64,000 nt of DNA. Origin: Takakia lepidozioides. Lineage: Eukaryota; Plantae; Bryophyta. Under the pieces are notes generated by a model, which saw only the letters and a program-made list of their open reading frames with translations, was not told the DNA's origin and searched no databases. The position numbers were made by a program, and so were the translations under genes. The stretch is from positions 16,244,001-16,308,000 of the forward strand of contig CM060733.1 of the NCBI GenBank assembly GCA_030704615.1. The letters run 5' to 3'. Shown piece after piece: positions 3,038 through 36,819 of this stretch; the first letter of the stretch is position 1, and each line of letters opens with the position of its first letter.

Positions 3038-3187
3038 TTCAAGAACCCCACCCCAAGTGGCAGACTGTCAAGAAGTTATGCCAGAAACTCATCTAGAGCT
3101 GGATACGAGCTTCACAAAAATTACCAGACTCCGTCATTTGGTATGTTTCGAGCTGTCAAGTGCAAGTTCCAGACTTCTTCATTTTAC

Positions 3188-3266
3188 GTACATGGTTCTC
3201 GCCCGCTGGGAATGATGGTAGCGTGCCCACCAAGTCGCCAGTAGAAAGAGCTGACACTAGTTGGTA
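3188..3266 (+). pseudogene. Short degenerate relic of the GPAT 3' coding end
   Basis: tacatggttctcgcccgctgggaatgatggtagcgtgcccaccaagtcgc resembles tacaaggttctcgctgggaatgacggcagcgtgcccgcaaagaccaagtcgc at ~2352-2403. Confidence 0.7.
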
Positions 3267-8751: not shown

Positions 8752-10259
8752 TCGGCAGCCCCTTCATTGATGGTAAAAGGGATCTCGGGAGATCGAGGCC
8801 TCTTCTTCTTACCTTGTCAAGTCTATGGGATTTTAGGAAGTGTGACAGTACTTTTGACACATTTTTAGGGAAATGATATGATTTTTTACATAAAAGCTTT
8901 CCTTTACTCTGTAACTCCTTCATTTCTTCTCTCTTGCTGCCTCTATATCTAAACATCTTTGAAAATTTCAAGGCCAAGCCTAAAGCCATGGCCCTTCTGG
9001 GGTCTTAACTGCAGGGCAGATCACACACACAGCATACTGATGCTTGTGTGTAGGGCTCTCTAGAGGAAATCTGATTTAAGCCCAAACAATTGTTAGTGCC
9101 CAGCAAACCAGGACTTGATTGGAGCAACGAAAACATTCTTAACATGAGGATTTTGCAGTGGTGCCAGCAGCAATCGAACCTGTACAGATCTGTAGTCCTA
9201 CTCGGTTCCATGAAATTCAAAGAGACAACAGGTCTTCTGGGAGAAAACATGCAGCTGCATCCTCAATCAGAGGTGATGGGGATATCAAGATTGTCCTGTT
9301 TTGAAGAGCTTCCCTAGTCATTCGACTGCAGACAAGATTGTGGCACAGGTGTAGGGAGAATGCCCAATGAGCTGGAGACGGGAGATTCGTTTCCAGGCTC
9401 CGATCCAGACGTCTGCTAGCACCAGCCGTGGGACGCCCCATTGTCGATGAGCGCCTATTAATTATGAAAGTAAATTATGACTTGTCAAGCGTTGTCTGTT
9501 TCTAACTTCGACTTTCCAGGAATGGGCAGAAATACATCATGTGCGATTTCACTGTATATATTTCCGATGCACAAGCTGCAGTAGAAGAGCATACTTCCCA
9601 GTCACATCTGGAAGAGCCCGTGTGGTGTAGACAGGCCTCCTCTTGGCGACCCCCCGGATATGCGTCAACAGCATGCATCCCAGGTGTACAAATGTGGCCC
9701 AGGATCATGCACATTTCCTAGGTAAGATTTCATTTGAATTATCTGATGTCGATTCCGGTCCGTGGATGGTGGTGGAGAAGCTTCGTAGTTGGGAAATGCC
9801 AAATGTAATCTGAGCTGTAGGCTGCTCCGAGGAAAGTTGTTTAAAGTTACACTGAGTTTCCAAAAACATCCCTTGATTTTCAGCTCCCCAGGTGAGGCAA
9901 TTTGGAGCTGAAACTGCAGCCTGGCCGGCTAACTGCCCGCTTTCAAAAAAACACGGAGATGATTTGGCAAGTCGGATCCGTATAGATTCATGATCCTGTA
10001 TGTGTGTATTTGTTTAATTAGAGAACACAAACCAGTTGAGCATTCATGAATGACGATAACCGGTCATTGATCCTGAATTCAATCAGAGCTGCGAGTTGAA
10101 CGACGTCGAGGACCAAGAACCCAGACTTTGATCTTGCTGTTAATAGTGCCGCACCGCAACCAACGCTACCAGGAACTATCAGTCAGTGATATTGACGACT
10201 GAATTTGGGGGATCTCATCATATCAAAGAGACATGCTTGCGTGAAACCGCCTTGTCAAC

Positions 10260-12687
10260 AATGTTGACTATCCCAGCACAATCCTGAGGAAGATTCATGA
10301 ATATCATTGCAGGTACTCGTGTCTATCTAATCCACAGTTAGCAAAGACGTGATCCATTGAGTACTTCAACTGTCAGCTAGAAGAATGACCGTGGGTTGGC
10401 ACAAAAATTTTTGTGAGTCCTGAGGAGGACGACCATCTGAAAGAAACAATTCGTGAACATCATCTGAACTCCAGGATCAATTTGATTAATTGAAGATGGT
10501 ACCTGCAAGTTGTGCAGTACGCAAATTCTCTTCATGGTACAATATGTACAATGGGAAACTCTGTTTTCTAAATTTGGAGTTTCTAAGACTACAATTGTTT
10601 TGGATGGATCGACTCTACAGTGAAGTTCTGTATACTGAAAGTAAGGGCCCTCTCTCTTTGAGAGAAATCCCAAGAATTGAGAAACGCAGATTCTATGAAT
10701 GGCTGCAGCTCGCAGGCAAAGGTCTAGTTTAGCGAGTCAAGTCGCTCCATCAAGTTACACCCATTCACTGAATTCGTGCAAGAAAAACAGTCTCCTTCAG
10801 ATCGGTGGGGTGGCAGCTTACAATGGCCGAGTTCGGGCACTAGCAACTAGTAATCTAGCCGGTGGAATGCGACTTGGTCTTTGCGGGCACGCTGCCGTCA
10901 TTCCCAGCGAGAACCTTGTACTTGTCCCTGCGAGTGAAGTTTGTGCACTGGAAACTCAGTGTCCCTGCAATAACCCTTTGGATGTAGTTGGCTACCTCCA
11001 CCGATGTTTTTCCACCCGCACATGTAAGCTCCATAGGCAGTTGGTTCAAAAATGTAACCTCGTAGACAGGTCTTGGGTTCATGAAGAAGAAGAAAGGATC
11101 CATGCCCTTCCACCCTGTGGCGGTCGTGCCGTGGAACATGGACATTCTGTTGAACATCGCCACGGGGGCGATCTTGTCCGTCAGCTCCGCAAAAAGCGCT
11201 GAGAATCGTAGGAGAAATGGCTCCCGGCATGTTGTTCCCTCTGGGCAGATGGCTAAGTCTCCTTCTTCCAAAAGCTTGCTGATGTTGGCAGCATCTTGCT
11301 CTCTGTTGCGAGTCAAGCAACCGTCTTGATTGGGGAAAGGGCCTCCGAGACACGTGAAATGGAGTATGTGACTGCTGTGATAGGTCGCCCGAGGGCTACC
11401 GACAGGAAGATGGGGTCCAACAAGGTCCGATGGGAGCAGATAAACAGGACTCCCTGCTTTCCATCCTTCACTGCAGGTGGGGTGTTCCCGTGACCTTTAC
11501 ACGCACCCCGAGGGCAACGTAAGCGTAGTATGTCAAGGACATGGGGAGCAAGGACCCTGCAGCAATCCGAAGCACGGCAAGAAGGAAACCGATAGGCATC
11601 CAGACGAGGGTGAGAAGAGCGTTGAGTGGAGTAGGGCGTTGCACAAGCCGCCCGTCGTGGAACACGATCGGCTTCGGCAGCTCCTCCTTTTGCACAGCTT
11701 GTACCTTGTTGGCGGGCACCACGTAGCCTTCCTTGCACAGCCATGAAGGGGTGGTCAGTCTTGCGGTCGCCCAGGCCAACGTCCGGTGCATCGTCCCCGA
11801 AAGCTGCCTTCAAAGCAATTTCTTTCTTCACACCCACAAGGACACCGGGGGCTTTGAGGAAACCTGTTGCGCGCCCGTTCCTGGTCACCTCGATCTCGGA
11901 CCCAAGCACCGCATCGGCACCCAGATACTCCTTTGCAAAGGTCTCCACCATTATGCGGGGATTGGCAGTCAGAACATAGCGCTTCCCAAAGGAGGAAAAC
12001 ACACGCCATGTCTCTGGGTGCAGATCCTCGCAGTAGAACTTTGGCAGAACCGCGCGCGCTACAGTCTCAATTTGAGTCACTTTGAGACCAGCAAAGGTGA
12101 CAAAGACTAACACCTGGATCCCTGCTGCTTCTGAGACGAAGTGATAAAGGAACCAAGCAATGGGGGCGAAGAGGAGGAGGAGGAGGAACGGAGAAAGCCG
12201 CCGGCCTCGAATGCCACCAGCATGAAGTAGGGAAATGAGCTCCGCCCTCTGACCAGGGTGCCATCCAAATCGGATATCACGGTCTGTTTCTCTCGTCCAT
12301 CGGAGCTGCATTTCTCAATGTAATCGAAAGGCTCCGGCCCAGATATCTTCGCCTTCGGACCCATGGTATTATGGTGTTGAGGAAGACCCGATCTGTGTGG
12401 GTAGTGCAGAGGCCGATGACGGAGTGTAGCTCAGTGTATTTGTCAGACACGTCGGAGAGAGAGAGAGAGATGAGGGTGGTGGTAGCGGGGAAGAGCGGGT
12501 GGGGAGAAGGGAGGCGATGAGAGAGAGTGATGGTGTGAGGGAGTGAGCGCAGTGTGCGGGTAATATACTGGGACACTGGTCAGTCAACCCTCGTTGACAA
12601 GGACCTGTGCTCTGGCCTGGCGCGTCCAACTTAGGTCTTATTATTACCTCGTCCGCCACCCTCTGCTTCTCCGGGTCCTCAAAGCTA
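10260..12687. repeat. Right arm of GPAT inverted repeat
   Basis: Reverse complement of 581-3037. Confidence 0.95.
10855..12364 (-). CDS. GPAT: GPAT4/6/8-like copy 2 (504-aa variant ending HSTG); frameshifted in this sequence
   Basis: ORF pieces match the intact 57008-58522 copy; same AAG>TAG early stop. Confidence 0.88.
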
Positions 12688-14638
12688 AGGACAGCGGGTG
12701 ATTGTGGGTAAAAGATCCCGACTGCCACAGTGCGCTTCCTGCAAGTTTCCCAGCAACTTAAGTATTCCTGCTCTTGTTGGAAACAAAGTAGATAACACAG
12801 AAATGATATAATATCCCAGCGAATGACACGGTAGGGGAGCAGACAACTTCCCGTGTTTGTACGCAGAGTAAACGCGGTTGATTCGCTTGGTCGCAGTCAA
12901 CTGCGGGGCCCACTTACAGACCGCGGACACGTTGTGGGCCCTAAAAAGGCGCCTAGCTATTTTCTATGTGGAAACCTTCTCAGACGGGAAGTTTTCATCC
13001 TGATACGAGAGGCACCTTAAGAAAATTGGAACTCGATGATTTTTGGTTTTTTTTCCCCTTAAAACCCAACTCACCATGCCATTAATGGCGCTTGTATGAA
13101 CTAGTAATGTCGGTATCTTCAAATATTACCGATAGGATCAGCCCTTCAGTTTTTTTTCGATTTCTGTTGACAGTCGATAGGTGGGCCAAGAACTAATTTA
13201 GAATGAACAAATCAACATTGTTTGGAATAGCTCAGAGACTCAGACCATTGATTATCATGCAAGACACTAAAATCGCATGTTGAGATTTGAGTTGCATGTT
13301 CAGTTTATAAATTAGCTCAAGGAGCAAATCTGTTGATATATATGTAGTGAATTGTTTGTTGTCGGCTGTGTATTGCTCCATAGATTTATACATGCTATGA
13401 ATGTTGTATATGAAGATGTCATTCAGTGGCATTTGCAGGTGATTATTACTATTTCAAACTGGTGGCTACAATAGAGAGAAGACTCCGGCCAAAGCCGACT
13501 TAACTAAGAGCTATTTCACCTTGCCCCTTTTGGGGGGGGGGGTGCTTCGCGTGAGCGTGAGAGCGCGTGAGCCTAGGCGGGCTCATGCCATGTCATCAGT
13601 TATTGCCACGTTGGCTGACGGGTCTGACGCCACGTCAGCCGACTTCGCCAGCGTGCCCGACGTCACGTCATGCCACGTAATTTTCATAGGCATGGCCCTA
13701 TAACCGCGGACCGAACAGGCAAATGGGGGCCTATAGCCGTGGATTGCGCATTTGGCAGACAGGGAACCATGTGTGGGCGATGAGGCGAGGTGCAGAAGAA
13801 AGTTTAGGGTTTGTTGGTGAATGTTGCAGAATGATAATGTTTGTAGAGACTGAAATGGTTGTGGATGTATTAATGTCCAGGTCATTAGTCTACAATGGTC
13901 CTCAGATGATTTAATGCCATGCTAATGTGGTATTTTACGTTGTTTGTCATCAGTGTAGAATGGTTGTGGATGAGTTAATGAGGATGAAGCAGAGCCAATG
14001 TGGATGGGACACTGCTAGTATGGATGAATGAGGATGAATAGTTGTGGACAAATATGGATGAAATATCGTGAATGGATGATAGAGTGGATGAATGTTGAGC
14101 GAGGATGTCATTCTAACATTTATGAAAACCAAGCACAACGATCAATGTCGTTTGCACAAACATTAGAAATTGTGCCTAAAATCCGTCCTGAAGCACTTGA
14201 TAAGATTTAGTGAATGTCTGGCATTTGGGGAAAGGTAGACAGATGACAACAATGTAGAATAAGACAACAGAACAGATGTGAGAGTGATCTTTCATTCTGC
14301 GACTTGTCCGAGTGCTTACTGCAACATTCTGGTGTGCAGCACGCTCCTCTTTAGTTATCCTCTTCAGTGTCGACACATTGCGAGCCATTTCAGCACTATA
14401 CTTCCTGCAACGCACCACCTGACCACGGTAAACATGGTGTGGACTCCAATGCGTATTGCGGTCCCTGCCAGTGAGGTAGAAATGTGCACTTGTATGTTAC
14501 GAGTACTGCAATTTTCATGGTTTTTCATCAGGACCATTATACAACAACATTCAAAATGAATTTGGCTCTCGTTTGTGCATGAGGAGGAATTCCGGGTCTT
14601 ACAACATTGTGTAACAGAAATTGACAAAACGTCTGCAT

Positions 14639-14960
14639 TGTCTTCTTGTTTGACCCATAACCAATATTATGCATGAGGATGTTGTCCTTGAACTTGCGCT
14701 AAAACCGAGAGTCCACCAATCATCCCCTAGGTGCCTTGTCTTCTTGTTTGACCCATAACCAATGTTATGCATGAGGATCCCGCCTTTGAACTTGCGCTGA
14801 AACCGAGAGCCCATACACCATCCACTAGGTGCCTTGTCTTCTTGTTTGACCCATAACCAATGTTAGGCATCAGGAGGCTGCCTTAGAACTTGCGTTTGAC
14901 CCGAGAATCAATACATACATCATCCCCTAGGTGCCTTGTCTTCTTGTTTGACCCATGACC
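14639..14960. repeat. ~98-bp minisatellite, 3 full units plus partial
   Basis: Recurrent tgtcttcttgtttgacccataaccaat...gaacttgcg...ctaggtgcct. Confidence 0.9.
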
Positions 14961-15511
14961 AACCATTTGCTGTACATTTCAATCAAAGCCTACAAGCCAA
15001 GATATAACTATCTACTGTATGAAGTGCATAGAAGCCATTGTTGTAAATGCATACACGGCAAGAAAATGAGAAACCATCTTTTAACAACATTACAACGAAC
15101 ATGCACAAATTTTTATTACAAAGTTGTGGAGGGACACAAAATGTCTGAAACTGTGAACATCACGAGACCCCCCAAAATGATGAAATTTGCATTTCAGTCA
15201 CTAGAACTATCCCCTGAAACTTGTGCAGTATCATCGACGTAAACCCGAGCTCTGAGGTGCTTGTTGTGCTTTCGAGCACATGGGGGAGATAACATGAAAC
15301 TCTGTTGACGAGCAATGGCCTCCGCGTAGTCGGGTAGGATGTATGAACGTGGAGGGCTGCACCACAAGTCACTGTGAATAAAAGAGACGTCGACCAAAGG
15401 AATAGCTTTCAATACCCTGCCACCCAAAGAACCACAATTGCATTAGCCACCATTAATGGGAAAGGGGGGGCCGTTTCCGAGGGAGAAATCGGATGCTTAC
15501 AGAAAAACAAC

Positions 15512-18500
15512 TTACTCACATGCGAAATCGTCGTCCAAAACTTTGTCGTCCCCTTCGTTGATTTCCACATGCACTATACCCTCCTGTTGTTGGGCGGCAG
15601 GTGCCGGCGCTGGCGCTTCCAAGTTATAGAGGAGGTCATTGAAAATGTCCGCATCCCCTTCCATACCAAACAAATGCCTCCCCGCTGCCTTGCAAGCATG
15701 GTACGAAGCTCCTGCAAGACATAGTACTCTTAGGACACATATAAACAAATTTTGCACCAAGAAGAAAACACCACAGCAGGTTCGGGGTGAAACCTGTGCC
15801 AAGAGTGAGGTCCACGATACGTGCCCCCGGATGGGAACAAGTCTCCACAATTGTTTGAATAAATGCTGGGCTCTTCTCCTTGGCCCCTCTCCATGGTGTG
15901 CAGTTGGATTTTTCGCAAGCATACATTGGAATCCACGTAATTGTAGTGCATGTCGTCCACCACTGGATCAAACTTATCGTTGATGAAACAACCTCCCCCA
16001 TGAAGCCTGAACTCCTTCACTGCTGTGGGAGTTGAAGCAGGGTGCACTCTGACGAGGCAGACGGCCTCAAAAAAGGCGGGTCTACACACAAGACAACATG
16101 AGGCACATATTAGTGAATCCAAAAATTCATCTGGAAAGAACAGTGCTTGCAACCTCCGAAAATGAGTGCGTTGACGCACTCATTTCTGCAGGGGTGAAAT
16201 GGAACTTCAAATGAAGCAGGTAAGAGAAAGTCGATTACCATTTGTCCGGGACAGTCGCCCTTTGTCAAGTACAGGCTGTTCACACCATTCCACATTTTGA
16301 TGATTTCATCCCCGAGGCCTTGAGTAGCTTGCAAGCTCATGGCGACATTTCGTATTGACCGACTGGATCATTACAAGAACCCATGCATCCGATAAAAAAA
16401 ATTGCAAAATGAAAAGACCCACCCGCCAGTACCTCTCATCAAATGCATTCCATGTTGGGCAAGTGCCTGTGGGTAGAATGTCCGGTACTGGCAACCTATC
16501 CGGAATGTCCACAATCACCATGTCGGCACAACATGGTTTCAGGGAACCATTGACCCAACACTGCCCTTTCGAAACCTGAAAACAGACAGACGGCAAAAAA
16601 ATTAATATCCAAAGGGAAAACAGTAAATGAGACAAACAATGGGAATTGGCTTATCGAGTCAAGGAATGCACACAGCTTGCCCCAAGTTCGAGAGGGTTCT
16701 CCAGCGTAACCAGATTTTCTGCTTTCCATCATGGCAAGGAATGAATCATTGACAATCTCGCATTTACATTCTCGCTGGATTCTGGATGGGTGCTCCACTG
16801 CGTCGTATGGCTCAATCTTCCCCTTACGTTTTCGTTCCTTGTTTCCAATTGGGGTCTGCGCTACCTCACCCCCCGCAGTCTCCCTTGGGTGGCTTTCTCC
16901 TTCCCTTTGTCATTTGTACCATTTCTCTTTCCCTTCCCTCTCGCAGGAGTTTTGTTGGCTGCGGGTTCCTTCTCAGCGAGGTTTCGCAGATTCCTCTCAT
17001 GCAATTCCTTGTCAGTAAGAGGGGCCAAAGACTCTGCATTGTCGTTCTGGTTCCGTGTCTACAACTCATACCAGGGGCAATCTGATTTCGGAATGTCTAG
17101 ATACCAGCAGCAGTCTTTCAGATGATATCTCCCGTAGTCTCTGAGGATGGCTGCAATGTACATGGTCTGACTGTTAGAGGGGTCAGACCACAAGTCGATG
17201 AAGGCAGGGTACTTACTGAGGTTTTTTCCCAGAATGAGCACGTTCTTGATATACCTACAAAACAAAAGAGGTACACTTTTAGACATTGAAGGCAAAAAAG
17301 CATATACTGCAGCCCTCCAAAATGCGTGCGTCGATGCACACAGTTTGGGGTGCACAAATACTTGAGCATTAGGCAACCGAAATACACTCACTAGTACCAA
17401 TGCAAGAACATGAGAAACAAAGGGTTCCATATGCAGAAAGATATCCCTTTCTCGGCAGACAGATATTCCATTCAGAGCTGCCAACGAAACAATGAAATCC
17501 ATGATGGAGGAGAGAACACATCTGAGTTTTGGCTTTCCAAAACTGCGTGCGTTGGCGCACGCAGTTTTGCATGGCCAAAAACTGCCTGTCTACTGATTGC
17601 CAAAGATAGTTTTCAAACATAAAACAAAACTAATGAACCTGTATAGGACCCTCTTCATGGCTCCCTCCGCCCCGTACTGCTGGTCAAAGTCATTTGTGCG
17701 GGAGATTCCTCCATCTCGGGAAAACTCTCTGAAGAAGCAGTTGCTCCAAGCAGTGGCCTTCCACTGCCTCAAGTAATCCTCCAGAGTGTCCTCGGGCACG
17801 GTCATGGTAATTTTGTAGTCATAAAGCTGTTTCTCCAGCACCTGGTTTGCACGAGCTTTAATCTGCAGGTATTCATATGCATGCGTTAGAGTCCATTCAT
17901 GGGAAGATATTCTCAGAAATTTCAAGCAAAGAAAGTCCTTAAAAGTACGTGGCTCCAGTAGGTGGCTTTGTACAACCATGTATCAAGAACTTGGTCGTTG
18001 ATGTGCCCGGTGTTCTCATCTCTTTCACCCCTAGGGAAGCAGTATGTATCCTTGACAGTTGGGTCGGAATTCCAAATCTCCAACCATTTCACTTTCTGGT
18101 CAGCTTCCACAGATGCAGTTGACAACCGGTGAAGCTTTTCCTGTGTCATCTCCGGTTTGGTGTTATTGTTCCAGTGGATCCTCACCTGATTAAGAAACTC
18201 GGGACCAAAATCAGGGTCAACTATTCTCAGCTATTTCACGAAAGCGCTCATGAGCTTCTTCCGTATCTCATTCATCGTAAATTTCATGGCTTCTGCCACT
18301 CCCTTGGACGTCCTCATACCCTCCGGGTTTTTCAAATAGTGCTCCGCTTTTCCTCTCTCTCCAGCTTCAACTATTTCTGCTGCAAAACGTAATCCGGAAT
18401 GAGATCACTTGTTACTGACAATCACAACAGACAATGGAAGGCCGGAGCGATGGAATACTTACAGTGTACATGTACTCCATGAATGTTTCCCTCGTTAGAT

Positions 18501-18995
18501 TGTACCAGGTATCTGACGTTTTCGATGTCAAACATTTCTTGAATGACTCCGCACGCAGGATGCTCTTGAATGAATTGAGGGGCATCTGGCCGATATTCTG
18601 GATCCTGAATAGTGTGTGAAGAAGGTTCATTGTCACATGGGCGGTTTCAGTTCCCCTGTCACATACAATGGTGTGTCGTCAGTGAGTGCTAAAAGCGAAC
18701 AGACAGTCAAGGAAAAAATGCGGACAATAACAAGTGAAGAAGACACTTACTTGTTAACGTCATGCATTGCCGTCAACAGTGCAGTGATGTTTCCCTTGCG
18801 ATCCAGCACCATTGAGGCCACAGAATAGTGCCACTCCTCCTCGGTGCTATGATATCTCTCTCGATCATGTTCCTCCAGGCAAGCAATCGGTGGTTGCCAT
18901 CCCAGACATGAAACTTCTTGCCAGAGAAAGGTTGGGTGACGAGCCTCTTGCAAATGATAGATTCAAACTCCTCATTTATCTGTCGCCAGATAGGA
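15512..18995 (-). pseudogene. 3' part of multi-exon cargo gene: end of ParB/Srx-like domain plus C-terminal N6-adenine/N4-cytosine (beta-class-like) DNA methyltransferase domain
   Basis: FHVWDGNHRLLAW (DGNHR at 18887-18901); DMVIVDIPD at ~16498-16524; KSPAFIQTIVETCSHPGARIVDLTLGTG spliced across GT-AG intron 15712-15793 to ASYHACKAAGRHLFGMEGD. Confidence 0.7.
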
Positions 18996-19177
18996 TGTCG
19001 TGCGCATACATATCGCTACACAACTACATCGCTATCCAAAACCACACAACACATGTGCACGCCACACACACTAGTATATCACTAGTCCACCACTAGTCCA
19101 ACCACTAAGGTATAACTAGTCAGTCACTAGGCTGCCACTATGCTGTCCACTATGGCAGTCACTAGTCCACACAATCG
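18996..19177. repeat. Terminal repeat A (outer copy)
   Basis: Near-identical to 19506-19685. Confidence 0.95.
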
Positions 19178-19503
19178 ATAAAGACAGAAGAAAGAAGAGG
19201 ACATACAAGCACAAGCTCACAAGCTGAAGCATAAACTCATGCATATATAACCTCATCACTCAAATACAAGTCAAACCAAGTGCACCCCACGCCATGGAGA
19301 ATCCACACTACGGCGCCATAGCTAGGCGCGGTGAGGCTCAACTCGAGAAAGATGAGCCTCCCGCGCTTGCCGTGAAGATAACCACTCCAGGGCCTAAATC
19401 TGCCTTGACCCCTGGATTGACACTTGGGCCAATCCCAAATGTCAATATGTAAAAACTAGCTATTTTCTAGCTAGTTTCACACTAGTGGTAAAATAACTTG
19501 ACA
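19177..19503. repeat. Terminal repeat B (inner copy)
   Basis: Near-identical to 28129-28455. Confidence 0.95.
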
Positions 19504-19505
19504 GC

Positions 19506-19685
19506 TGTCGTGCGCATACATATCGCTACAACTACATCGCTGTCCAAAACCACACAACACATGTGCACGCCACACACACTAGTATATCACTAGTCCACCA
19601 CTAGTCCAACCACTAAGGTATAACTAGTTAGTCACTAGGCTGCCACTATGCTGCCCACTATGGTAGTCACTAGTCCACACAATCG
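19506..19685. repeat. Terminal repeat A (inner copy), adjoining polypurine tract AGGGGGG (minus strand, 19686-19692)
   Basis: Direct repeat of 18996-19177; adjacent cccccct on plus strand. Confidence 0.93.
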
Positions 19686-19939
19686 CCCCCCTAGCTGGTG
19701 CTTCGGTCCCTCTAAGTCCAGGTAGCCATAAGATGTGATAGTGACCATAGCCTGACTAAGTCTTCCACCACTGTCCCTACTACACTCAAACTCGATAGAT
19801 CAAGAGGCCGGGTGCGAGAGTTGCCCCAACATTAGTCGCCGTCTTGCAACCTGTGAACTTGAGCTTGGGATCTCATGTATTGACTATGAGCTTGGCCTCC
19901 CATGTCTTGTTAGTTGCCTCCAGTCATGTCCACTGCCAC

Positions 19940-20090
19940 TATCCCAAGCAGTGTGGACACAACCAATCTCCATCAGGAACCCTCTCAAGAGGTGGTGTCA
20001 AGCATCCCATATGCCAACCTTTGAGCATCGATCACACACCAGCATGGTGGCTGCCGCTTTGGCAGACCCACAGAACATGCACCTCAAACC
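19940..20090 (-). CDS. PHD finger at the integrase C-terminus (one frameshift)
   Basis: CMFCGSAKAAATMLVCDRCSK/GWHMGCLTPPLERVPDGDWLCPHC read on the minus strand (C4HC3 pattern). Confidence 0.85.
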
Positions 20091-20206
20091 TGCAGGTACC
20101 ACTGCCAACTGTTGGGTCAACTCTGCCATCGACATTGGGAAGGTGACATGGCGCACAATTACGCACATGGTCCTTCCAAGTCATGCCATCTTCAAGACAC
20201 TCCAAT

Positions 20207-21300
20207 TCAGGACATGAGCTGGACATAGTGTCCACAATTGAGTACAGTAACCAAGATCAGGACCCCTGAGGGCAACACCTCTCGAACCCTCAGAATAACA
20301 CGCCCTGCATTGACATCCATGGTCGTAGGAGCAGTCTGCTGCAAATAAACATAGTCACCAGGGCTAAACCTCCAAACCCCAGGACGATATCCTCCACCAC
20401 GTATAGTGGCATACCTCAACGTATCACGGTGCTGTGCAATGGCAAGGTTCTCAAAAGCCATGGGCATGACTTTCTTAAACAACTCTGCACGCTGATCACA
20501 TGCACGTACCCACACGTCCGGATCGTCAAGGTTAAGGACTTGAGCAGTGTCCTTACGAATGGCTGCAGGCAAATCCGGCTCTCGGCCAAAGAGAAGGAAA
20601 TATGGTGAGAAGGAGGCAAGTGATGCTTGTTTGCTGAACCTGTAGCCCATGGCTAACCAAGGAACCTGAAGATCCCAATCTCCTAGGTGTCCCTTCTGCA
20701 AGCCATACTTGCGCAAACCCCTCTTCACCGTCTGGATGACTCTCTCTGCCAAGCCATCGGCCTCAGGATGATCCCGAGAAGTGGTGCGGTGGTCTATCAA
20801 GGCTTTATCACACAAAGCCTGAAACTCCCCCAAGAACTCTCTCCCTTGGTCCATGAGTACCTCAGCTGGAGCACCAAATCGGCTAAGCACACGATCCAAG
20901 AATGCATACGCAGCCCCCTCACTAGCCTTGTCAGGCAATGGAACCAACTCAATCCACTTGGAGAAGTGCTCCACCATCACCAACACATATCTGTGGTGGC
21001 GCATAGTCAGTGGCAACGGTCCTGCGAAGTCAAGACTCCACCTGTAGCCCAATCCCATGATTGGTAAAGGATGCAACTGTGGTGTAGGGGCGTTGAATGA
21101 AGCACGCACCCTGTCACACACATGCACCTAGCCACGAACTGTTGCACCTCTGTATGCATACCACGCCACCAATACTGCCCTTGCAGTAAACTGTGAGTGC
21201 GTCGCACTCCAAAATGCCCCAACTCCTCATGGGCATGCCGCACTAACCGTGCACGCTGTGTGGGGTGAGGCACAATCCTCACCCGACCATCCTCCCACAC
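20207..21300 (-). CDS. Gypsy-type DDE integrase with HHCC zinc-binding region
   Basis: HAHEELGHFG...YWW, WSLDFAGP, VLMDQGREF, DGLAERVIQTVK. Confidence 0.93.
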
Positions 21301-22149
21301 TCAAAGTAGGTGTATCCCCTCCCACTTGAACCTCTTGGCTCGTTGCAGGATCCGATCCCTCTCCCTGGCAGTCACAGTGGCTGCCGTGTCTCCAGTGCGG
21401 AGGTAGTCCAACACAACTGAATCCTCATGTATATCTTTGGCACCACCTGGCTCATCACTAGCCTCAGGGTCCTCAGACACTCTGTCTACAGTCATCCCTG
21501 CTGGAGGTCCAACCTGACCTCCCGATGCCAAGATACACAAAAATGCAGATGCGTGCCATCCCGGCACCATCTCCTCGTCCGTCTCACCATGCCCCGAGCT
21601 CCAGTGTCATCCTGCTGGCTCGTGCATGGATTGCGACTCAATCCATCCGCATCCCTATTGACCAAACCCGGTCGATGCACAACCTGAACATGTCTCTCAT
21701 GCTCCTCCACCGTAGCACGAGAGGCAAAGCAATTCCTGTAAGCCTCAGGAACCGCCGTATACGTCGTCTCTCTTCCTCTAATGACAATAGGTCCAATGTC
21801 AAGCTCCCAATTGCCCTTTGTAACTGCAACCTTAAGTCCAGCAGACTTAGAGGTAGAGGACGCGTCCGTGGTTGCTATGCCGCAACCTCTTGAGCAGTAC
21901 TCCCTGCCTGCTCAGTCAATGACAAGGCCTCATCCTGCCCCATCATCTCATCATTGAGAACCTCCTCAACCCGAGAAGAATCCCCAACCTCATCCATCAC
22001 AGCTGCCTTGGCTGCCAACTCCCTCTGAATCTCGAGCACCTCCCACATGTGCCATGGATGTCTACACCCCGTGGTCCTCACCGGCTCGCCCCCACTCGTT
22101 GCCTGTACCGTCTCGGTAGGCAGAGAGACTGTAAAGGGAAGTGCACTCC

Positions 22150-23130
22150 GCACTCTACGTTGCTCAGCCATAGCCAAGTTGATAATCCAGGTCAAGCAAT
22201 TGAGATCCATTGCTTGCCCCAACACCTGACGACGTGATGCCTCAAAAAGAGACGGCACCGCCGTGGTACCAGTGGTAAAACCCATTGCCCACTCACGCTC
22301 GTCAGCATTAGGCTCCACTAACTGCTGCAACTGAGCATCCCACAGGAGGCCAGGTCCACTATCCTGGAAAGCATGCGATCCTGGGAAGCTGAGCAGTGTA
22401 GGTAGTGCTACTCGTGGTTAACCCACCTTGTTGACCACTGCCAAAGGCGAACGGTCATCGTGTCTCACACGTTGAGACTGCCTCCGTGTCCAAAATGCTA
22501 TCCACTGTGAGATGTGCTGGCCGCTGCACCCCATCAAATGCACGCTTGAGCAGTGCGGGTGGCATCAAGTTAGTCCACCATAGCCGTGGACGATGAGCCC
22601 GTGATCCCACTGCAGCTGCATCCAGCAGCACTCTGACCCAAGCCACGTCTGGACTTGATGCACACTGGCCATCACCCTGGCCCAAGAATCGCCCATCAGT
22701 GGCACATTCTCCAAGATGTATGCTGGCGATACAGCTTGATGAAGCTGCAAGTGGTGGCAAAATCCGCACCATCTCCCAAAAGACCCGTCCTCGAGTCTCG
22801 CAATCCATTGTCATGCCCGGCTGATGAATGCCCTTGGCAGGGCCAACCTGCCACTACCAGATCAATGGAGCCAACCTGCTCCAAATCCGGCGCCCCCAGC
22901 AAAGAAATGTCTGCTGGCAAGGCCTGCTGATATCCACGAACTGCAACACCCGGCAACAACTCAGGGTACTGCTGCACCATCTGAGCAACATGACGGAGTG
23001 AGACGCGTCGTGCAGTCTCATCCCTCTCCACATACAAGTAATGCCTTACCCGCCACCTGCCTGTAGCATAGCAGCCAATCCGGTGCTGATCCCACCAAAC
23101 AAGTCCAGAAGACAAATGCCTTCATCTGGA
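22150..23130 (-). CDS. C5 cytosine DNA methyltransferase domain inside pol (frameshifted)
   Basis: LDLFGGI (motif I), YLYVERD (II), IDLVVAGWPCQG (IV, catalytic PC), YILENV (VI), AHRPRLWWTN (VIII), EREWAMGF (IX), RRQVLGQAMD (X). Confidence 0.9.
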
Positions 23131-23559
23131 TACTGCCACACAATAGGTGTGGTGTCCAATGGAGACAACTGAGGTGGTCCTGGTGCAATCCCGCACTCTC
23201 CTCCTCTCCTGACGGTACAAAAGCCTCCACCCAGGCTTGTTGCACCCGTTGATCAGCATCCCGCTGCAAATCCTTGCTCGTGCCCCATAATGGAGTCTGA
23301 GCAACCATGGTAGGCAACTCCGCCATACCATACATGTCATCCTGCTCTCCCGGAGGTGGCACATCCTCTGAATGAGCGTTGCCCTCAAGCAACTCTCTAG
23401 GCCAACTCACTGCCGCTGTGAATGCTGCTAGTGTCGGCATCTTGCCTCGCTGGGCAACCGCAACTCCTCATATGAACGTCACAGGGAGCTGCACACGCCG
23501 GCCCTCCCCTGACTGCCATCCAGGCCTATAGGAAGCTGACTCCTCCCAAAAATCCAGGT

Positions 23560-23900
23560 GAAGCCCATGGGGTACAATACTGCCCCACCAACCAGGACAT
23601 CGTACGAGACCGCGTCTGTCACAATGGCCTTGGCTCGCATCACTGAGCCATCTATAGGATGATCCGGCTATAGTCTGATAGCCAACTCACGCCGTGTCAT
23701 GCCTCGAGCCTGCTCCAATCCTCCCAGAGACGTCTGTATCTGGTAAGGACAAGGCTCCATATCCGCCTCCGTGAGGCCCAAGCCTGCAACAGCAGCTTGC
23801 CCAGCATCAATGGCTGAGCTCCCGAGTCTAACAAGACCCGCAGTGGCCGGTACCTCTTGCCTGCCGGTCCACTCAAACAGAAAATACCATCCTGGTTGTC
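23560..23900 (-). CDS. Retropepsin-type aspartic protease
   Basis: RVLLDSGAQPLMLG; downstream YDVLVG-like motif. Confidence 0.8.
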
Positions 23901-24013
23901 TAACAAGACAACTCCGGGTGTCACCATGGCGCGCTCAATGGCTGGCCTAGCTGGCAGCTCCATCAACCTGACAGCTGCAGCTTGCCAAGGCGCCGCCGTG
24001 GCAGTCTTGACCC

Positions 24014-25920
24014 TCAAATCCGAGGATCCTCCGGTACTACACCTCCCACTATCTCCGCAGAAGATGAAGTAACCTCCACACTCTCACAGAGTGTAGCTGC
24101 CAGCCTGAACACCTCAGCTGGTCTTACCCCCGGCGTCGCAATCATGGTAGCCGAGAACAATGGAGCCTGGCACACAGATGTGGCCGCTCCCAGCAGCACA
24201 CTAGCTGCCGTAGTGTTGGCAACACTAGGTAGTGGTGCTACCCGTGTAGCTCTCCCCAATGGCATAGTAACCTCCGCCTCGGTAACAGTCGGGCGAGAAC
24301 TAGGTGCCATGGATGGCGTCGACACTGTCTCTGCCAATGTGAATGACTGAGGAAGCCTAGCCTGACGGCTTGCCTCCCCACGTTGTGGATCCAACTCCAC
24401 CTCTGCACCTCGTGGCTCAGGAACTTGTGCTGTTCCTCGAGTCACGGCTGCAGCAGACTTGACCTGCACTAGTGGTAGTGCTGCTCCACACATGAATCCC
24501 ATGTCTCTCATATCTCCTCCCTCAGGAACAGGAGGTGGACCATCCGGCCTTGGAGCCGGTACCACCTGAGCTGTAGCCATGGCAGCGAGCCTTTGCTCTA
24601 GCTGCTGAAGCCGGTTGGCCATGCCTTGGCCACCACCTTGACCTCCGCGTCCTTGGCCATGTTGAGCTTGCCCTTGGCCTGCACCTCGTGCCTGCCACCG
24701 TCCTCTCTGGGCTGCTCCACCTCGCCCCCGGCCACCATTGTTCCCTTGGAACTGGCCTGGGCAACTCAGGATGCAAACCATAACAATCTATGTGCTTGCC
24801 ACAATGCCCACACTGCAACTGTGCAGGCTGTGCATGTGCTAGCCCTTTGCCTCCTCTGGCAATCCTTCTTGACATGGGGTCCTCCACATGTCCAACACAC
24901 ACATCCGCCCGTTGTTGGCCTGCAAATGAAGGGAGAGACCCCTGCATCTGAGGTTCTCTCTGTCCTTCCCTGGGCTTCACCTAAGCCCCCTTGTTGCCTT
25001 GAGCACGTTGAGGTAGTGGTTGGCTAAGCACCACTACCCCGTGGTGTCTCCTTAGCAAATCCCACCATGACCACTCGTTCCTCCACCATGTTGAGCTCTA
25101 TCCGCTCTGCCAGCAAAAACACATTTGCTAAGGTGGGTTGGGCCGCTTGTAGGAGAGTTGCATCCCGCACCCTTCTCCTCAGCTCCTTGTCCAATATCCC
25201 ATACCAAATTGGACTGCCTGAGCTTCCGTAACCCCTTGGGTTACATTTATCAAGCGCCTCATGCGAGTGAAAGCCTCCCTCAAGCTCTCAGTCGGCTTCC
25301 GTTGGAACTCTTGCAAGCTCCGCAACTTCTCTGTCCTCACCCCTTGGTAGTTCCCTCTCAACTCTTCGAAGAACTCCACAACAGGGTTGAAGGCAGGCAC
25401 CGCCACTGGTGCTGGTGCAGGTAGCTTGGGTGGACGTCGTAGCTATGGTACACCAGTCCCACTGCTGCTGCTGAAGCTGCCGGTGCAGCGGCAGCTGTAG
25501 CCACTGCCCTCGTGGCTCTAGTGCCCCTAGTGATGGAGACATAGTCGGGTGACCAGTACATCCTCCACTCCTCGATCTCAACCTCATGCCCCCGCCCGAA
25601 CTCATGGTAATCATCCATAGGCGGCCCTCAAGGTGCTGACAACCCTTCCATGCCATGAAAGGCGTAAATAGTTGTGGATTGCGCATTTGCTGCAAATCAC
25701 ACCAACTATCAAACTCTTGGATAAAATCATCCAACTCAATGGTGCCCACCGCCCCAGAGTACCTTCGTGGCCCCTTGGTAGCTCCATACATCTCCTCCAT
25801 TGTGTCCCACAACAATGACAAGGAAACAACTTGCACCGCCGGTATGAGTCCTCCTAATTCACAATCCGAATCAGAACCTTCCGTAGAAGACACAGGAGGT
25901 GAAGGTGGCCTAAACCGCAC
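24014..25920 (-). CDS. Gag-like region (frameshifted) with zinc knuckles
   Basis: ELDDFIQEFDSWCD, FQRKPTESLREAFTRMRRL, CWTCGGPHVKKDC, GRGRGG-rich tract. Confidence 0.75.
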
Positions 25921-26549
25921 ACCTCGTCTCGTGTACCCTAGTATCGCTAGTGCTCAAACCGGCACTTCCCCAGCAACTAGTGGCACCTCCGTGTTGACAC
26001 ACTCAACCGGTCATGAACATGTCCTAACCCCCTCTCCACAAGGTTACCGGGTAGAGAACCTGTTGCGCTTATGGTTTGGAATACTAGATTCCTAACATAG
26101 CCTACACCTGCACCTGCATCCACCGCAAGCACTCCTATGGTTGGCTGGTCATCACCTCCAACCTCACCACAGGAGAAACAATGATGTCTGACTGGTCATC
26201 ACCCCAGCCTCACCATCGACAGCATGCTCTAGGACTGGCCGGTGATCAAATCCGGACCAATCACCTATAAAAACAAGTGCCCACACAAAACTAACATGGC
26301 GCACAGTCAAGCATGATGCAGGTGTGGGGGGGATCCAAACACAAAGAAATCAGAACGACAACTCCCCCACACCAAAAACAACTCCACGGTGTTGCTCCTG
26401 CAATGACACCCCAGCCCAAACCCGGACTGACTCTTGCCTCCACCTACGGAAAGGTCTTGGCCTAATGAGAGGGTGGAAAACTACAAGGAAGAGAAGCTAA
26501 AGCAATGCCTAACCCCAGCATGCTCTCATCCCGTCCAACAGTTGGAATC

Positions 26550-26850
26550 TGTCGCCAGTCAGTCCGCTTGTCAGTCGCCAGTCTGCTGGTGTCCACTTGC
26601 CAGTCTACCGGACTGAGTCAGTCTGCTTGCCAATCGCCAGTCCGCTCGTCAATCACCGGTCTGCTGGTGAGTCCACTCGCCAGTCTACTGGACTGAGTCA
26701 ATCCGCTCGCCAATCACCGGTCTACTGGTGAGTCCACTCGCCGGTCTACCGGACTGAGTCAGTCCGCTTGCCAATCGCCAGTCTGCTCGTCAATCACCGG
26801 TCTGCTGGTGAGTCCACTCGCCAGTCTACCGGACTGAGTCAGTCCGCTGC
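26550..26850. repeat. Short-period tandem repeat in the retroelement 5' region
   Basis: Recurrent cgccagtctaccggactgagtcagtccgc and caatcaccggtctgctggtgagtccact. Confidence 0.85.
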
Positions 26851-27359
26851 AGAGCTGCAGAGAACCAAAAAGCAAGTGGAAGGAGCAGGGCTGCCCACAG
26901 CCTCTTCTTCATCAGTCGACTCAGTCTCAGGAGAAGCTGGAATGGCTTTATCACCAGCCCCCTTACATCTGGGGATCCAGTCCAAAGGTAAGGGAAAAGC
27001 CTCTCCAAACACGCCACTAAACTCAATGGCAAACAACCAAGCCCTGCTGGCTCCCAGCCCTTGTGAGCACTCATTCAAGCACTCTCCTTGGCCATAGCAT
27101 CTGTCTTAGAGCCTATTCCAGCCCCCTACACCTGCCACTTCAAGAGCCATGCTCTACCTAGGCTTGGGGTTGAAACCTCAACTCACATATGCCCTACAAG
27201 TGGTCTTCTTTCACCCAAGTGGGAACCAGCCCTAGCCCTTCCATTCTAGCTCTCTAAAGCTTGAAAACAAAAGCCTCAATGGGCTGAAGGCATGCTCCAC
27301 ACATGCCCCACTCTCACCATGAGAGAATCAGCTCTTTTGCTTCATTTCTTGCACCCACA

Positions 27360-27600
27360 AACCTGAAAATACAAGCTTCAGCAGGCTGAAAACATGCTCC
27401 ACACATGCTCTACAGGGCAACCAGCCCCTTCCTTCCTTTCTTGCACTCCCAAACCTGAAAGTACAAGCCTTCAACAGGCTGAAAGCATGCTCCACACATG
27501 CTCTACAGGGCAACCAGCCCCTTCCTTCCTTTCTTGCACTCTCTCCAAGCTTGAAGATGGCAGCTTCAACGAGCTGAATACATGCTCCACACATGCAACC
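27360..27600. repeat. ~95-bp tandem repeat in the retroelement 5' region
   Basis: caggctgaaa..catgctccacacatgctctacagggcaaccagccccttccttcctttcttgcactc repeated. Confidence 0.85.
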
Positions 27601-28110
27601 TCTTCACACAAGAGGTATCAGCCCCCTATCTTGGCTCCTTGGCTCCTTGATGCTCTCTAAGACAAGACTAAGCACTCCACAGCCCTTGCCAAGCTCCTGA
27701 AACCCTAAGGCTTACATTTCCAGCCCCAAGAGACTCCTCTTGTGGTGCAAGAGCTCTTCTTCCAAGCTCTGAAACCCTAGGTGCACATTCCATGGCCTTG
27801 CCGCACATCTTAGCTTTTGTTCTAGCCCTACTCTTGCCATGACAAGAGCCCTCTCAATGCTGAAGCTCGAGATTGAAACCCAATCTCCACATACTCCACA
27901 AAGTGCACTGATTTGCCCCGAGCCAAATCAGCCCTTTCGCTTGGTCTTACAATCCTTCACACAATGAAAGCTCGCATTCCCAAGTCCAGTTCTCAGCTTT
28001 GCCACCAAGCCACTCCATGGTGCTCCTTGCATAACAACCTGGTTTCTCTCATTTCTCAAGCAAAAACCACAAGTGCTACAACTAACTCGAACCTGGCACT
28101 CACAGACTCG

Positions 28111-28128
28111 GGCTGATCTTTCTCGAGT
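28111..28128 (-). other. Candidate self-priming primer-binding site
   Basis: Lies immediately inside repeat B; 17/18 complementary to 28293-28310 (and to the equivalent site in the other B copy); no canonical TGG-starting tRNA PBS. Confidence 0.6.
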
Positions 28129-28455
28129 GATAAAGAAAGAAGAAAGAAGAGGACATACAAGCACAAGCTCACAAGCTGAAGCATAAACTCATGCATATAT
28201 AACCTCATCACTCAAATACAAGTCAAGCCACGTGCACCCCACGCCATGGGGAATCCACACTACGGTGCCATAGCTAGGCGCGGTGATGCTCAACTCGAGA
28301 AAGATGAGCCTCCCGCGCTTGCCGTGAAGATAACCACTCCAGGGCCTAAATCTGCCTTGACCCCTGGATTGACACTTGGGCCAATCCCAAATGTCAATAT
28401 ATAAAAACTAGCTATTTTCTAGCTAGTTTCACACTAGTGGTAAAATAACTTGACA
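28129..28455. repeat. Terminal repeat B (outer copy, 5' end of element)
   Basis: Near-identical to 19177-19503. Confidence 0.95.
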
Positions 28456-29960
28456 AGGATCCCAGCCTCCAACAATGGACTCGTCCACCAACACCTCTCT
28501 GCCAACGGAGTCCGCCAAGGAGACGTAAAAAACAGATTGACCCTCTACGTACCCATGGCAAAAATCACGTTCCAACTTTTGAATGTCATTCATCAGAGCT
28601 GGTCGAACAAAGGGCATGGAGATCAAACGACATAGGGGTATCATTATTTTTCCCCCAGGGACGCCCATGGCCTTGATGACTTGGGCAGAATTCACTTTGG
28701 AGAATGAAAGCAGATCTTTCGCTTTGTCTTCATATGACCTGCCATCGTCCTCCTCCTCAACAACCACCAGTTCCTGCTCAATCACTTCTTCCTCGACCTG
28801 AGTAGCACCTTTCATTTTCTTTGTCTGCACTCAAAACGATATATTATGAATGTAAAAGACTTGCCAGAAATTGCGTGCTTCAACGCACGCAATTTTCTAC
28901 CCTCTGAAAGGTACTCATTTCTTTGCCTATTTCATACCCAATGTCAATCTACTCTCTTGCATCAAACATTTAATCTAATCTCGCTGTAGGCTGAAAGGTG
29001 AGTGCGAGAGAACCTCCAGAAACTGCGTGCGTTGACGCACGCAATTTCTGGGGGTTCTCTCACACTCACTTTTCTGCCTATTCATGGCTTCTGTCGCAGT
29101 TAACACAGCACAGCTGAGAGAAGGTCATAGAGAGAACATTCAGAAATTGCGTGTGTTGACGCACGCAATTTCTGGAGGTTCTCTCTATGACCTTCTCTCG
29201 GCTGTCGAACTCTAATCGAACTACTTGGGATGGTACAACCATTGTGCAATGTGAAAGTCTCCCCTCCTATGCAGTACATGAAAAGTGAGAAGTGGGTCAC
29301 ACCCGGGTTTGGTTGTTATGCATTGCCTGCATCCCTGTGGTCTTACTCTAAATGATCAAGCATAAAAAAGCAGAAGAGATGGCAAGAAAAATGTGTGCGC
29401 CACCGCACGTAGTTTTCATGCCCTGGAAACTTGACAGAAAATGGCAAGTAAGAGAATCACCTGAGGTCCTTTGGCCGCCTTTGATGTGGCAACAACGGCG
29501 GTCGTCCTCCCAGTTTGGGCAGCCTTCTTAACCTTTGGTGTCGCCTCCTCCTCCACAATGTTCTTCCCCTTCGGCGTGGATTCCTTTGCAAGAGCGTCTG
29601 CCTCGTCTGTGTCCATAGAGTCTGTGTCGTCCTCTGACACAGTTTCGTCCGCAACTTCATCAGGAGTTGGCGGCTGGTCCTCCCCCGCCATGTGTTCGGT
29701 TTCCAGGGCTGCGCTCTCCTCTGCGATCTCCTTCAGTGTCATGTTCAGCTTTCGGCCTTTCATTCTCTCTCTTGCCTTCTTCCTCTCTCGCGCTGAAGTA
29801 AAAAAGAATGACTGTCTTCTAGGCCTTCCACTCTCTTGCGCGGAACTCTGTCTCCTGCTACTCTCCAGCTTGAAAAACTACGATCTACTGGAATGAGAGA
29901 CGTCGTGCGATGAGTAGCAGCCGGGGCATCGCTCTCGGCGGTTATACATGTATTCACTGC
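28456..29960 (-). pseudogene. 5' part of the MULE cargo gene (acidic/low-complexity N-terminus and first half of ParB/Srx-like domain)
   Basis: IMIPLCRLISMPFVRPALMNDIQKLERDFCHGY...VFYVS continues in frame across the gypsy insertion to DGNHR; exact start uncertain. Confidence 0.6.
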
Positions 29961-35269: not shown

Positions 35270-36530
35270 CAATTGGCAAGAACATAGGCCCATTTGAGTA
35301 CCTGAACGTCCGGAAACTTGAACAACAAGTGCAGATCTGTTGGGGGCAAGACCACAACCCCTTAAGAACATTCAGAGTCAAGAGGCCACCATAACTTGAT
35401 CACACTAGTTTTAGGAATGTTTCAAGCCATAGCACACCCAAACTAGAGCAATTGCAAGGAGATAGGCCAATCTAAGTACGTGAACGTCCGGATACTTCAA
35501 AAACAAGTGCAGATCTGTTGGGGCCAGACCACAACCCCTTAAGAAAATTCAGAGCTCAAGAAGCCACCATACCTGATCACACTAGTTGTTAGAAATGTTC
35601 AAGCCATAGCACATCACAACTGGAGAAATTGCCAAGGAGATAGGCCCATCTGAGTCCGAATGTCGGAAACTTGAACAACAAGTGCAGATTTGTTGGCGGC
35701 CAGACCACAACCCCTTAATGAGATTCAGAGCTCAAGAGGCCACCATACCTTGATCACACTAGTTGTTAGAAATGTTTCAAGCCATAGCCCACCACAATTG
35801 GAGCAATTGGCAAGAAGAGAGGCCCATCTGAGTACCTGAACGTCCGGATACTTGAATAACAAGTGAGATCTGCTGGGGGCCAGAACCACAACCCTTAGAA
35901 AATTCAGAGCTCAAGAAGCCACCATACCTTGATCACACTAGTTGTTAGAATGTTTCAAGCCATAGCACATCACAACTGGAAAAATTGCCAAGGAGATAGG
36001 CCCATCTGAGTACCCGAACGTCCGGAAACTTGAACAACAAGTGCAGATTTGTTGGTGGCCAGACCACAACCCCTTAATGAGATTCAGAGCTCTAAAGGCC
36101 ACCATACCTTGATCACACTAGTTGTTAGAAATGTTTCAAGCCATAGCCCACCACAATTGGAGCAATTGGCAAGAAGAGAGGCCCATTTGAGTACTTGAAC
36201 GTCCGGATACTTGAATAACAAGTGCAGATCTGCTGGGGGCCAGACCACAACCCCTTAAGAAAATTCAGAGCTCAGAAGGCCACCATACCTTGATCACACT
36301 AGTTGTTAGAAATGTTTCAAGCCATAGCACACCACAACTGGAGCAATTGCCAAGGAGATAGGCCTATCTGAGTACCTGAACGTCCGGAAACTTGAACAAC
36401 AAGTGCAGATTTGTTGGGGGCCAGACCACAACCCCTTGAAAATTTTTATGGCTCTAAAGGCTAGCATATCTTCATCACCCTACTTGCTACAAATCCACCA
36501 AGCCATAGCACACCCAAATTGGAAAAATTG
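35270..36530. repeat. ~180-bp satellite, about 7 units, alternating dimer structure
   Basis: ggcccat-type unit starts near 35287, 35465, 35643, 35821, 35999, 36180, 36361. Confidence 0.93.
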
Positions 36531-36819
36531 GCATGCAGATAGGGCACAACATAAATGAATGGGACTCGGTCTGGCTTCACCCCCTGCTGATGTGCATTTG
36601 CTCACAGGTCTCCAAAGCCTCCATCCCCCATATCCATGATGTGCATGTCCTGCAATCATAGCACTCCAGAACACCACATCTCGTTTGCCCATTAAACACT
36701 TCATTTGCATCCATAGTGCTCCCACATTTGGCATACATATCAACAAGGGTATTGTTCAGAATGACATCTGGTACTATTCCAGCCTTGACGATGTCACCAT
36801 GGACCTCTTTTTCCTTCAT
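36480..36819 (-). pseudogene. PLS-class pentatricopeptide repeat gene fragment
   Basis: EVHGDIVKAGIVPDVILNNTLVDMYAKCGS...RDVVFWSAMIAGHAHHGYG; frameshifted. Confidence 0.88.

Follow-up and report, generated by a model that had tools for sequence, protein, structure and literature searches.

A Ty3/gypsy-type retroelement of Takakia lepidozioides with permuted long terminal repeats and an internal att palindrome: possible integration by way of an opened circle

Layout of the Element

Considered here is a retroelement within a 64,000-nucleotide stretch of DNA from Takakia lepidozioides (Bryophyta; assembly GCA_030704615.1, contig CM060733.1, positions 16,244,001 to 16,308,000, forward strand). 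That whole stretch is termed 'the window', and coordinates refer to it unless a metagenome locus is named. The element lies on the minus strand and is bounded by a 4-bp target-site duplication (TSD). Read in its own sense it consists of a module B, a body, a polypurine tract (PPT), a module A, the dinucleotide GC, and then B and A once more, i.e., B-body-PPT-A-GC-B-A. This is an arrangement that may reflect integration by way of a circle.

Along the plus strand the order is as follows: a TSD copy, AGGA, at the element's 3' end (18992-18995); the terminal A module, A2, which supplies that 3' end, ...GACA (18996-19177); an internal B module, B2 (19177-19503); GC (19504-19505); a further A module, A1 (19506-19685); the PPT, with a run of six Gs abutting A1 (19686-19696); the body; a primer-binding site (PBS; 28116-28128); the 5' B module, B1, which supplies the 5' end, TGTC... 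(28129-28455); and the other copy of AGGA (28456-28459). The two copies of A are 96.7% alike, with one 2-bp indel, and the two copies of B 97.9% alike. A2 and B2 share one base at their joint (19177-19178). About the GC spacer is an intact att palindrome, GACAGCTGTC, i.e., GACA-GC-TGTC (19500-19509), which occurs a single time in the window, starting at 19500. The positions which a first-pass annotation of this DNA had given were all recovered upon re-measurement.

AGGA thus adjoins both ends of the element. This copy alone would also fit a 5-bp duplication, AGGAT; 4 bp is the only length to fit all seven of the relatives tested, the 5-bp reading failing in three of the seven. Joining the flanks with one TSD restores a single open frame across the insertion site, and the empty site is itself present in contigs from three of four sequencing runs (two studies), which jump from 18992 to 28457. 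Because excision restores the frame and contigs carry the empty site, the ends are real ends and the duplication is a real duplication.

The Replicated LTR versus the Inserted Ends

As the PPT abuts A and the PBS abuts B, the long terminal repeat (LTR) that is reverse transcribed should be A-GC-B (A1-GC-B2 in this copy), that is, an LTR which does not start with TG. Such had been proposed in the first-pass annotation, and the placement of both landmarks supports it. The ends as inserted, TGTC and GACA, are instead the two halves of the palindrome found in the middle of A-GC-B, and the palindrome is conserved, in keeping with the additional proposal that the inserted termini derive from an LTR-internal site. 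A claim that neither end of the replicative LTR is of the TG...CA type stands only in part: the lack of TG at the start is firm, but if B is taken to include the first base of the PBS, a reading of its end as ...TCA is possible in all three families.

The PBS appears to be of a self-priming type. That is, the 13 bases which directly follow the 5' B are complementary throughout (13/13, matched in 0 of 500 shuffles) to a stretch within B, on the minus strand at 28293-28305, which is the predicted self-primer as well as predicted transcript start. This pairing co-varies in three families, spanning 12-17 nt with differing letters, and in two other families the self-primer is positioned about 30 bp downstream of a TATA box. 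Among twelve elements tested, the match beats shuffles in six (0-1 of 500 shuffles). Self-priming as such is known from Tf1/Tcn1 elements (PMC6317226). Relatives also possess a comparable G-run, found 300-630 bp after the integrase.

Recurrence Among Relatives

Retrieved in one scan were 80 related metagenome loci, in assemblies from short reads. Left out of the counts that follow are 28 of the 80, in which either no module could be recognised or the sequence beyond the integrase was too short, along with L007, L008, L045, and L063, which read A-NN-B with their end unseen. L022 (a single-A end of another family, judged by eye) and L039 are counted separately.

The PPT-A-NN-B-A end, here 'ABA', is present at 21 of the 80 loci, representing 14 distinct insertions, and five copies are complete as B-body-ABA. 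Commonest, though, is B-body-A: the single-A end is seen at 25 loci, or 21 distinct insertions out of 35 distinct 3' ends, again with five complete copies. Ordinary LTR-body-LTR copies, the finding that the first-pass annotation had named as fatal to its view, are absent among the 11 distinct 5' ends and 35 distinct 3' ends classified, while what it had hoped to see, independent insertions sharing B...ABA with different 4-bp TSDs, is indeed seen, with 14 distinct insertions. Upstream of the 5' B no A is present at any of the 11 distinct 5' ends (with L037 offering just 58 bp upstream), nor in the two large families does any insertion end at the end of B. Among the ten relatives for which both ends are available, the TSD is an exact 4 bp in seven, has one mismatch in two, and is eroded in one.

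The spacer is 2 bp in all 14 distinct ABA insertions, either GC or decay forms, the variants GT, AC, and AT fitting C-to-T decay of GC. The palindrome is common to at least six families, with integrases that are 55-80% identical to that of the window and with LTRs which are otherwise without BLAST match except over the last 40-55 bp or so of A.

Two observations concern the element ends. From its position 879, L044 displays a single-A end followed by GCTG, as the palindrome would continue, and then unrelated DNA, which may be chance or an uncut spacer. In addition, the base beside the TSD equals the element's terminal base (A before or T after) in five of eight insertions, i.e., that of the window (18992-18996), L003, L025, L037, and L080, hinting at a target preference.

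The Joint Between B and A

While the palindrome is precise, the joint where the end of B meets the start of A is imprecise. In family F2, eight insertions represent five joint classes; in L075, A is short by 5 nt, and in L061 about 215 bp of B are gone. In family F1 a single class dominates, and one of five insertions (L023) has a 17-nt filler. The dominant class makes up three to four of five insertions in F1 and three of eight in F2. This variation between copies is what would be expected of a fresh end-join, as the joint had been viewed in the first-pass annotation.

L039 is a case of its own. At its positions 1165-1798 are A-AC-B, a copy of the PBS, and then B in inverted orientation (1-179), breaking off precisely at TGACA. 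Several differences between its two copies of B show that this is not a mirror artefact; likely it is, as a single case, a captured plus-strand fold-back at the primer site which was trimmed at the palindrome.

In the source organism, contigs over 19120-19560 cross the palindrome at family-level depth, and in one contig record (X5 no. 21) the match stops at 19503, leaving 31 letters that do not match. A 200-fold dip in depth over 19180-19209 was considered as a sign of joint variation and is not so used here, most copies differing from this one at 19178-19220.

Coding Content and Classification

Judged by its sequence, the element is of Ty3/gypsy type, with protease, DNA methyltransferase (DNMT), DDE integrase (INT), and PHD finger. 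All of its coding regions are on the minus strand. In the element's own sense these begin with a broken gag-like region with Cys/His knuckles (24014-25953; from translation, with no Pfam match) that is preceded, in the 5' leader, by tandem repeats of 61/80-bp and 93-102-bp units (26557-27622). Next is a broken aspartic protease (PR) region, so labeled for its LLDSGA motif (23474-23860), which is without Pfam match but matches residues 67-183 of Klebsormidium nitens protein P0024, and then a broken C5 cytosine methyltransferase domain (22160-23121; PF00145, E 2.8e-6; 43-53% to P0024). The last residues of RNase H (RH) and a break are found at 21585-21790, as based on comparison with relative P0003 and on read depth. 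The integrase follows, its zinc-binding region frameshifted (21124-21480; matching P0003 and P0013, with PF17921 in relatives) and its core plus C-terminal part at 20210-21127 (PF00665, E 8e-14), with D33, D93, and E128 invariant in an alignment of 24 sequences. Last is a frameshifted PHD finger (19942-20190), identified by tblastn to the PHD-bearing relatives P0003, P0004, and P0013.

Lost from this copy are the reverse transcriptase (RT) and most of the RNase H, residues 1-467 of P0003 being without match. Contigs of run X1 have loose ends at 21718 and 21773, depth is 6,400 at 21779 versus 506,000 at 21842, and at the 21700-21790 break further copies from this organism have sequence unlike that of the present one. 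This copy, being without RT, is dead. The family as a whole is of very high copy number in the source organism.

Complete relatives read DNMT-RT-RH-INT-PHD, and the PR-RT-RH-INT domain order of Ty3/gypsy is present. RT was found in 13 of 16 loci tested, and for that of P0013 the best solved match is Ty3 RT (E 3e-73 versus 6e-48 for the next). Present as well are TG...CA termini with a TSD in the 4-6 bp range of Ty3/gypsy elements and, by sequence prediction, a self-priming PBS as in the Tf1/Tcn1 chromoviruses. P0003 and P0013 have no chromodomain, having a PHD finger instead. What is not found is two co-linear terminal LTRs bounded by PBS and PPT, all classified copies being B-body-A-GC-B-A or B-body-A. 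No tyrosine recombinase Pfam family was found in 11 open frames of the element or in P0003, P0013, and P0024.

Named relatives are from Riccia, Marchantia, Calypogeia, Klebsormidium, Pleodorina, and Tetrabaena, with the nearest named integrases those of Riccia and Marchantia. An outgroup-free integrase tree, which gives the lineage no place among named clades, separates two K. nitens rows from each other, one of them sitting on a long branch. Related families retain the methyltransferase domain, at 31 of the 80 loci, from plant-associated metagenomes (e.g., L003 at its 6709-6969, L075 at its 6144-6419). No relative of the element was found among the viral contigs searched.

Algal Relatives and Prior Reports

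That related algal elements might already have been described was a reserve of the first-pass annotation, and one that proved apt. KnitGypsy-Dnmt3 of K. nitens is presented in the legend of Fig. 4c of de Mendoza et al. 2018 (PMC5890265) as having repeats arranged as in DIRS elements together with Gypsy domains. As here, a cytosine methyltransferase is found in its Gypsy Pol along with DIRS-like split repeats, and protein P0024 of that alga reads DNMT-RT-RH-INT and matches the present copy at 43-58%; the window's host, by contrast, is a land plant, as judged from its GPAT gene. In those portions of the text and supplement of PMC5890265 that were available, no mention was found of TSD, palindrome, PBS/PPT placement, or mechanism for KnitGypsy-Dnmt3.

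Gypsy-7a_cRei of Chlamydomonas reinhardtii is described by Craig et al. 2023 (PMC9940879) as having 86 insertions unique to one laboratory strain and, per a figure legend, a left LTR without its last 8 bp. No interpretation of that 8-bp asymmetry was found in the available parts of the paper. The C. reinhardtii repeat library (PMC9940879 supplement), so far as available, contains GACAGCTGTC at least 11 times, in nine instances shortly after a G-run. Judged by eye, CA-GC-TG is at the PPT-side boundary in 14 of 24 numbered Gypsy families (2, 3, 5-11, 14, 18, 21, 22, 24), with seven of the rest canonical and three that cannot be told; the entry boundaries themselves were judged by eye at 139 of 158 places. 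Gypsy-14a and 14b read B...A-GC-B...A with the same integrase motifs. A left LTR without A is stated for Gypsy-7a_cRei only and can be read in the library for 14a and 14b only. Like the elements considered here, these Chlamydomonas entries end internally with a PPT plus short A plus CA-GC before the TG start of the LTR, and a PHD finger is present. Unlike here, their A is 6-55 bp, versus 108-180 bp in the present long-A families, and the PBS of families 7a-10 is TGG-type (tRNA-like).

The layout, then, is already on record in the two legends cited above (de Mendoza 2018; Craig 2023), while the integration route is possibly new. No paper was found on the palindrome, permuted LTR, or circle route in a search that did not reach theses, Repbase reports, and most subscription journals. 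The LTRs of REM1 are reportedly unequal, which may be further prior art.

A Proposed Route of Integration

The reading favored here, with a probability of roughly 60%, is that the ends of the element's complementary DNA (cDNA) are joined to form a circle which the DDE integrase then opens at the LTR-internal palindrome, such that copies start and stop at palindrome halves. Going by the sequences, cleavage by integrase of an LTR-internal att site is highly probable. That joining precedes cutting, i.e., that there is a true circle, is favored with distinctly less assurance.

The steps may be envisaged as follows. RNA would start inside B1 and self-prime, with ordinary LTR reverse transcription then giving rise to A-GC-B-body-A-GC-B. 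The end of B and start of A would be joined imprecisely, whether by host end joining or by an RT jump. The integrase would nick after CA on both strands, at GACA^GC-TGTC, leaving CA-3'OH ends with 2-nt 5' overhangs like those of processed retroviral ends, and these ends would be joined to the target across a 4-bp stagger. Cutting in the 5'-LTR palindrome would yield B-body-A-GC-B-A, a form able to replicate again, with one-LTR circles or else collapse of the repeat pair yielding the common, dead form, B-body-A.

A number of points weigh against this proposal. The circle, the RNA start, and integrase cleavage are all deduced rather than observed, the relatives are known from short-read metagenome assemblies, and in six of the twelve elements tested the self-primer match is not above shuffles, the pairing having decayed there. 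The dominant joint class of each family could also come from inheritance, and A2 resembles the A1 of its own element most in just eight of 13 cases, which lends no consistent support to A2 being copied from A1 at each round. In addition, a symmetric 2-LTR circle predicts equal numbers of BAB-body-A and B-body-ABA, whereas complete relatives include none of the former versus five of the latter (one-sided binomial 0.03, by hand), so that some further asymmetry, or else a collapse step, has to be built into the model. The 5'-LTR palindrome might be favored, since it would be the first to turn double-stranded, or instead BAB might be lost by B x B collapse, feeding the single-A class (21 of 35 ends). 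The first-pass claim that a cut 2-LTR circle yields exactly B-body-ABA consequently survives to the extent that ABA recurs, but not as to the BAB which should be equally frequent, nor as to B-body-A being the commonest form.

Alternative Explanations

Cutting could instead come before joining. That is, the integrase might cut the 5'-LTR palindrome in linear cDNA, hold both half-sites, and integrate them with no free circle formed, after which host end joining of the B end with the A start would result in ABA and annealing of the two A copies in a single A. Both forms along with a variable joint would then issue from one path, and large losses such as that of L061 would be explained. The 8-bp A of Gypsy-7a_cRei, however, would need to be retained and then reattached each time the element inserts; such an A seems too short to carry loose, which favors joining before cutting, and every insertion presumably would leave a chromosome break. 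We consider this path unlikely, if the most serious of the competitors. Less probable still is that RT, upon reaching the end of one LTR, switches to the start of the other and continues synthesis, producing redundant linear or lariat DNA which the integrase trims at two palindromes. Dominant joints do share 0-2 nt between B end/PBS start and A start, L039 displays strand switching at the primer copy, and a late plus-strand jump would explain ABA as sole form, without BAB. Yet the templated 17-nt filler of L023 and the 215-bp loss of L061 resemble host end joining, and half-sites from two palindromes need not retain the 2-bp spacing, which is exact.

Very improbable is a DIRS/Ngaro-like origin, with joint and ends inherited by way of a long transcript and a tyrosine recombinase, acting in trans, integrating the circle. 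The split-repeat layout is the same as that described for Ngaro/PAT-type elements (PMC5890265), but 4-bp TSDs, TG...CA ends, and a DDE triad all point elsewhere, as do the lack of any recombinase domain in Pfam scans of the open frames and of P0003, P0013, and P0024, and joints that vary. Hardly credible, lastly, is that the layout stems from misassembly or from a single event of tandem or nested insertion. High-copy repeats are easily misassembled, and the single-A form could be a collapsed ABA. Against this are 14 independent ABA insertions in other organisms plus curated Chlamydomonas entries, and the source-organism contigs that cross the palindrome; single-A copies, moreover, which carry TSDs, are not the younger of the two forms (p 0.96 and 0.28). 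A one-off origin of the ABA form is, by this recurrence, refuted; for the single-A form, collapse in assembly is unlikely rather than refuted.

Comparison with Known Systems

With retroviruses and LTR elements, linear cDNA is taken to be the integration substrate and LTR circles to be dead ends, cleavage of the circle junction being debated. With insertion sequences of the IS3/IS30 type, a circle in which TG...CA ends abut across a 2-3 bp spacer is opened by a DDE enzyme. These, unlike the present element, are DNA transposons, with the junction built each round and no RNA step. Ngaro, PAT, and TOC1 differ in employing a tyrosine recombinase and in usually lacking a TSD, rather than having a DDE integrase and a 4-bp TSD. 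Their likeness is in layout, i.e., a lone repeat at one terminus opposite a series of alternating repeats, along with an internal copy of the joined ends, as described in PMC5890265.

HIV-1 integrase tetramers cut the palindrome of the 2-LTR junction in vitro (Delelis et al. 2007; PMC1905944), so the palindrome-cutting chemistry is possible. There as proposed here a DDE integrase cuts an att palindrome on both strands (PMC1905944; cf. PMC1180852, PMC4372172). The retroviral palindrome, however, forms only upon ligation of LTR ends, as a side path, whereas that of the present element is LTR-encoded and apparently the sole source of ends. Canonical Ty3/gypsy elements and the self-priming Tf1/Sushi, Tcn1 group share with it PR-RT-RH-INT, a PPT, a self-priming PBS, TG...CA ends, and a short TSD (PMC6317226). 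A canonical Ty3/gypsy LTR nonetheless starts with TG at the PPT and ends with CA at the PBS, whereas here the att ends are found head-to-head inside the LTR.

The Surrounding Window

The window contains a segmental duplication of about 18 kb, at 1-17735 and 46119-64000 (97-99%). In both copies, copia-type gag/pol remnants lie between two RAM2-like GPAT genes that are inverted relative to one another, such that a 2.4-kb unit is present four times. The gene that the element interrupts (minus strand, 28456-28830 and from 18991 downward) is multi-copy in the source organism and is flanked by repeated palindromes of 28-56 bp, at 17319, 17540, 28864, 29020, and 29144. It has a DGNHR motif reminiscent of ParB-like domains, with no Pfam match, and is possibly an unclassified transposon. 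At 43151-45331 is a 727-codon frame with PF13843 (piggyBac-like/IS4 transposase), and at 35270-36543 a tandem array of about 178-bp units that are 81-90% alike.

Implications

Methyltransferase-carrying Gypsy elements are extended here from a charophyte alga, Klebsormidium, to land plants. LTR finders which expect two equal LTRs would miss or mis-split such elements, and the B-body-A form offers no terminal repeat to detect. As TG...CA ends are unobtainable from the termini of the cDNA, this would be a natural case of palindrome cleavage as the main route. For a large green-lineage branch of Ty3/gypsy, from Chlamydomonas to bryophytes, the odds seem slightly better than even that the 3' processing of linear ends has given way to a circle that must be opened at an att palindrome within a permuted LTR. 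The link to Gypsy-7a_cRei makes the question testable by way of existing long-read assemblies and circle assays. If true, then this would be a third integration route for LTR retroelements, one bridging retroviral integrases and circle-forming, IS3-type transposases, and with Gypsy-7a_cRei as a naturally active laboratory model.

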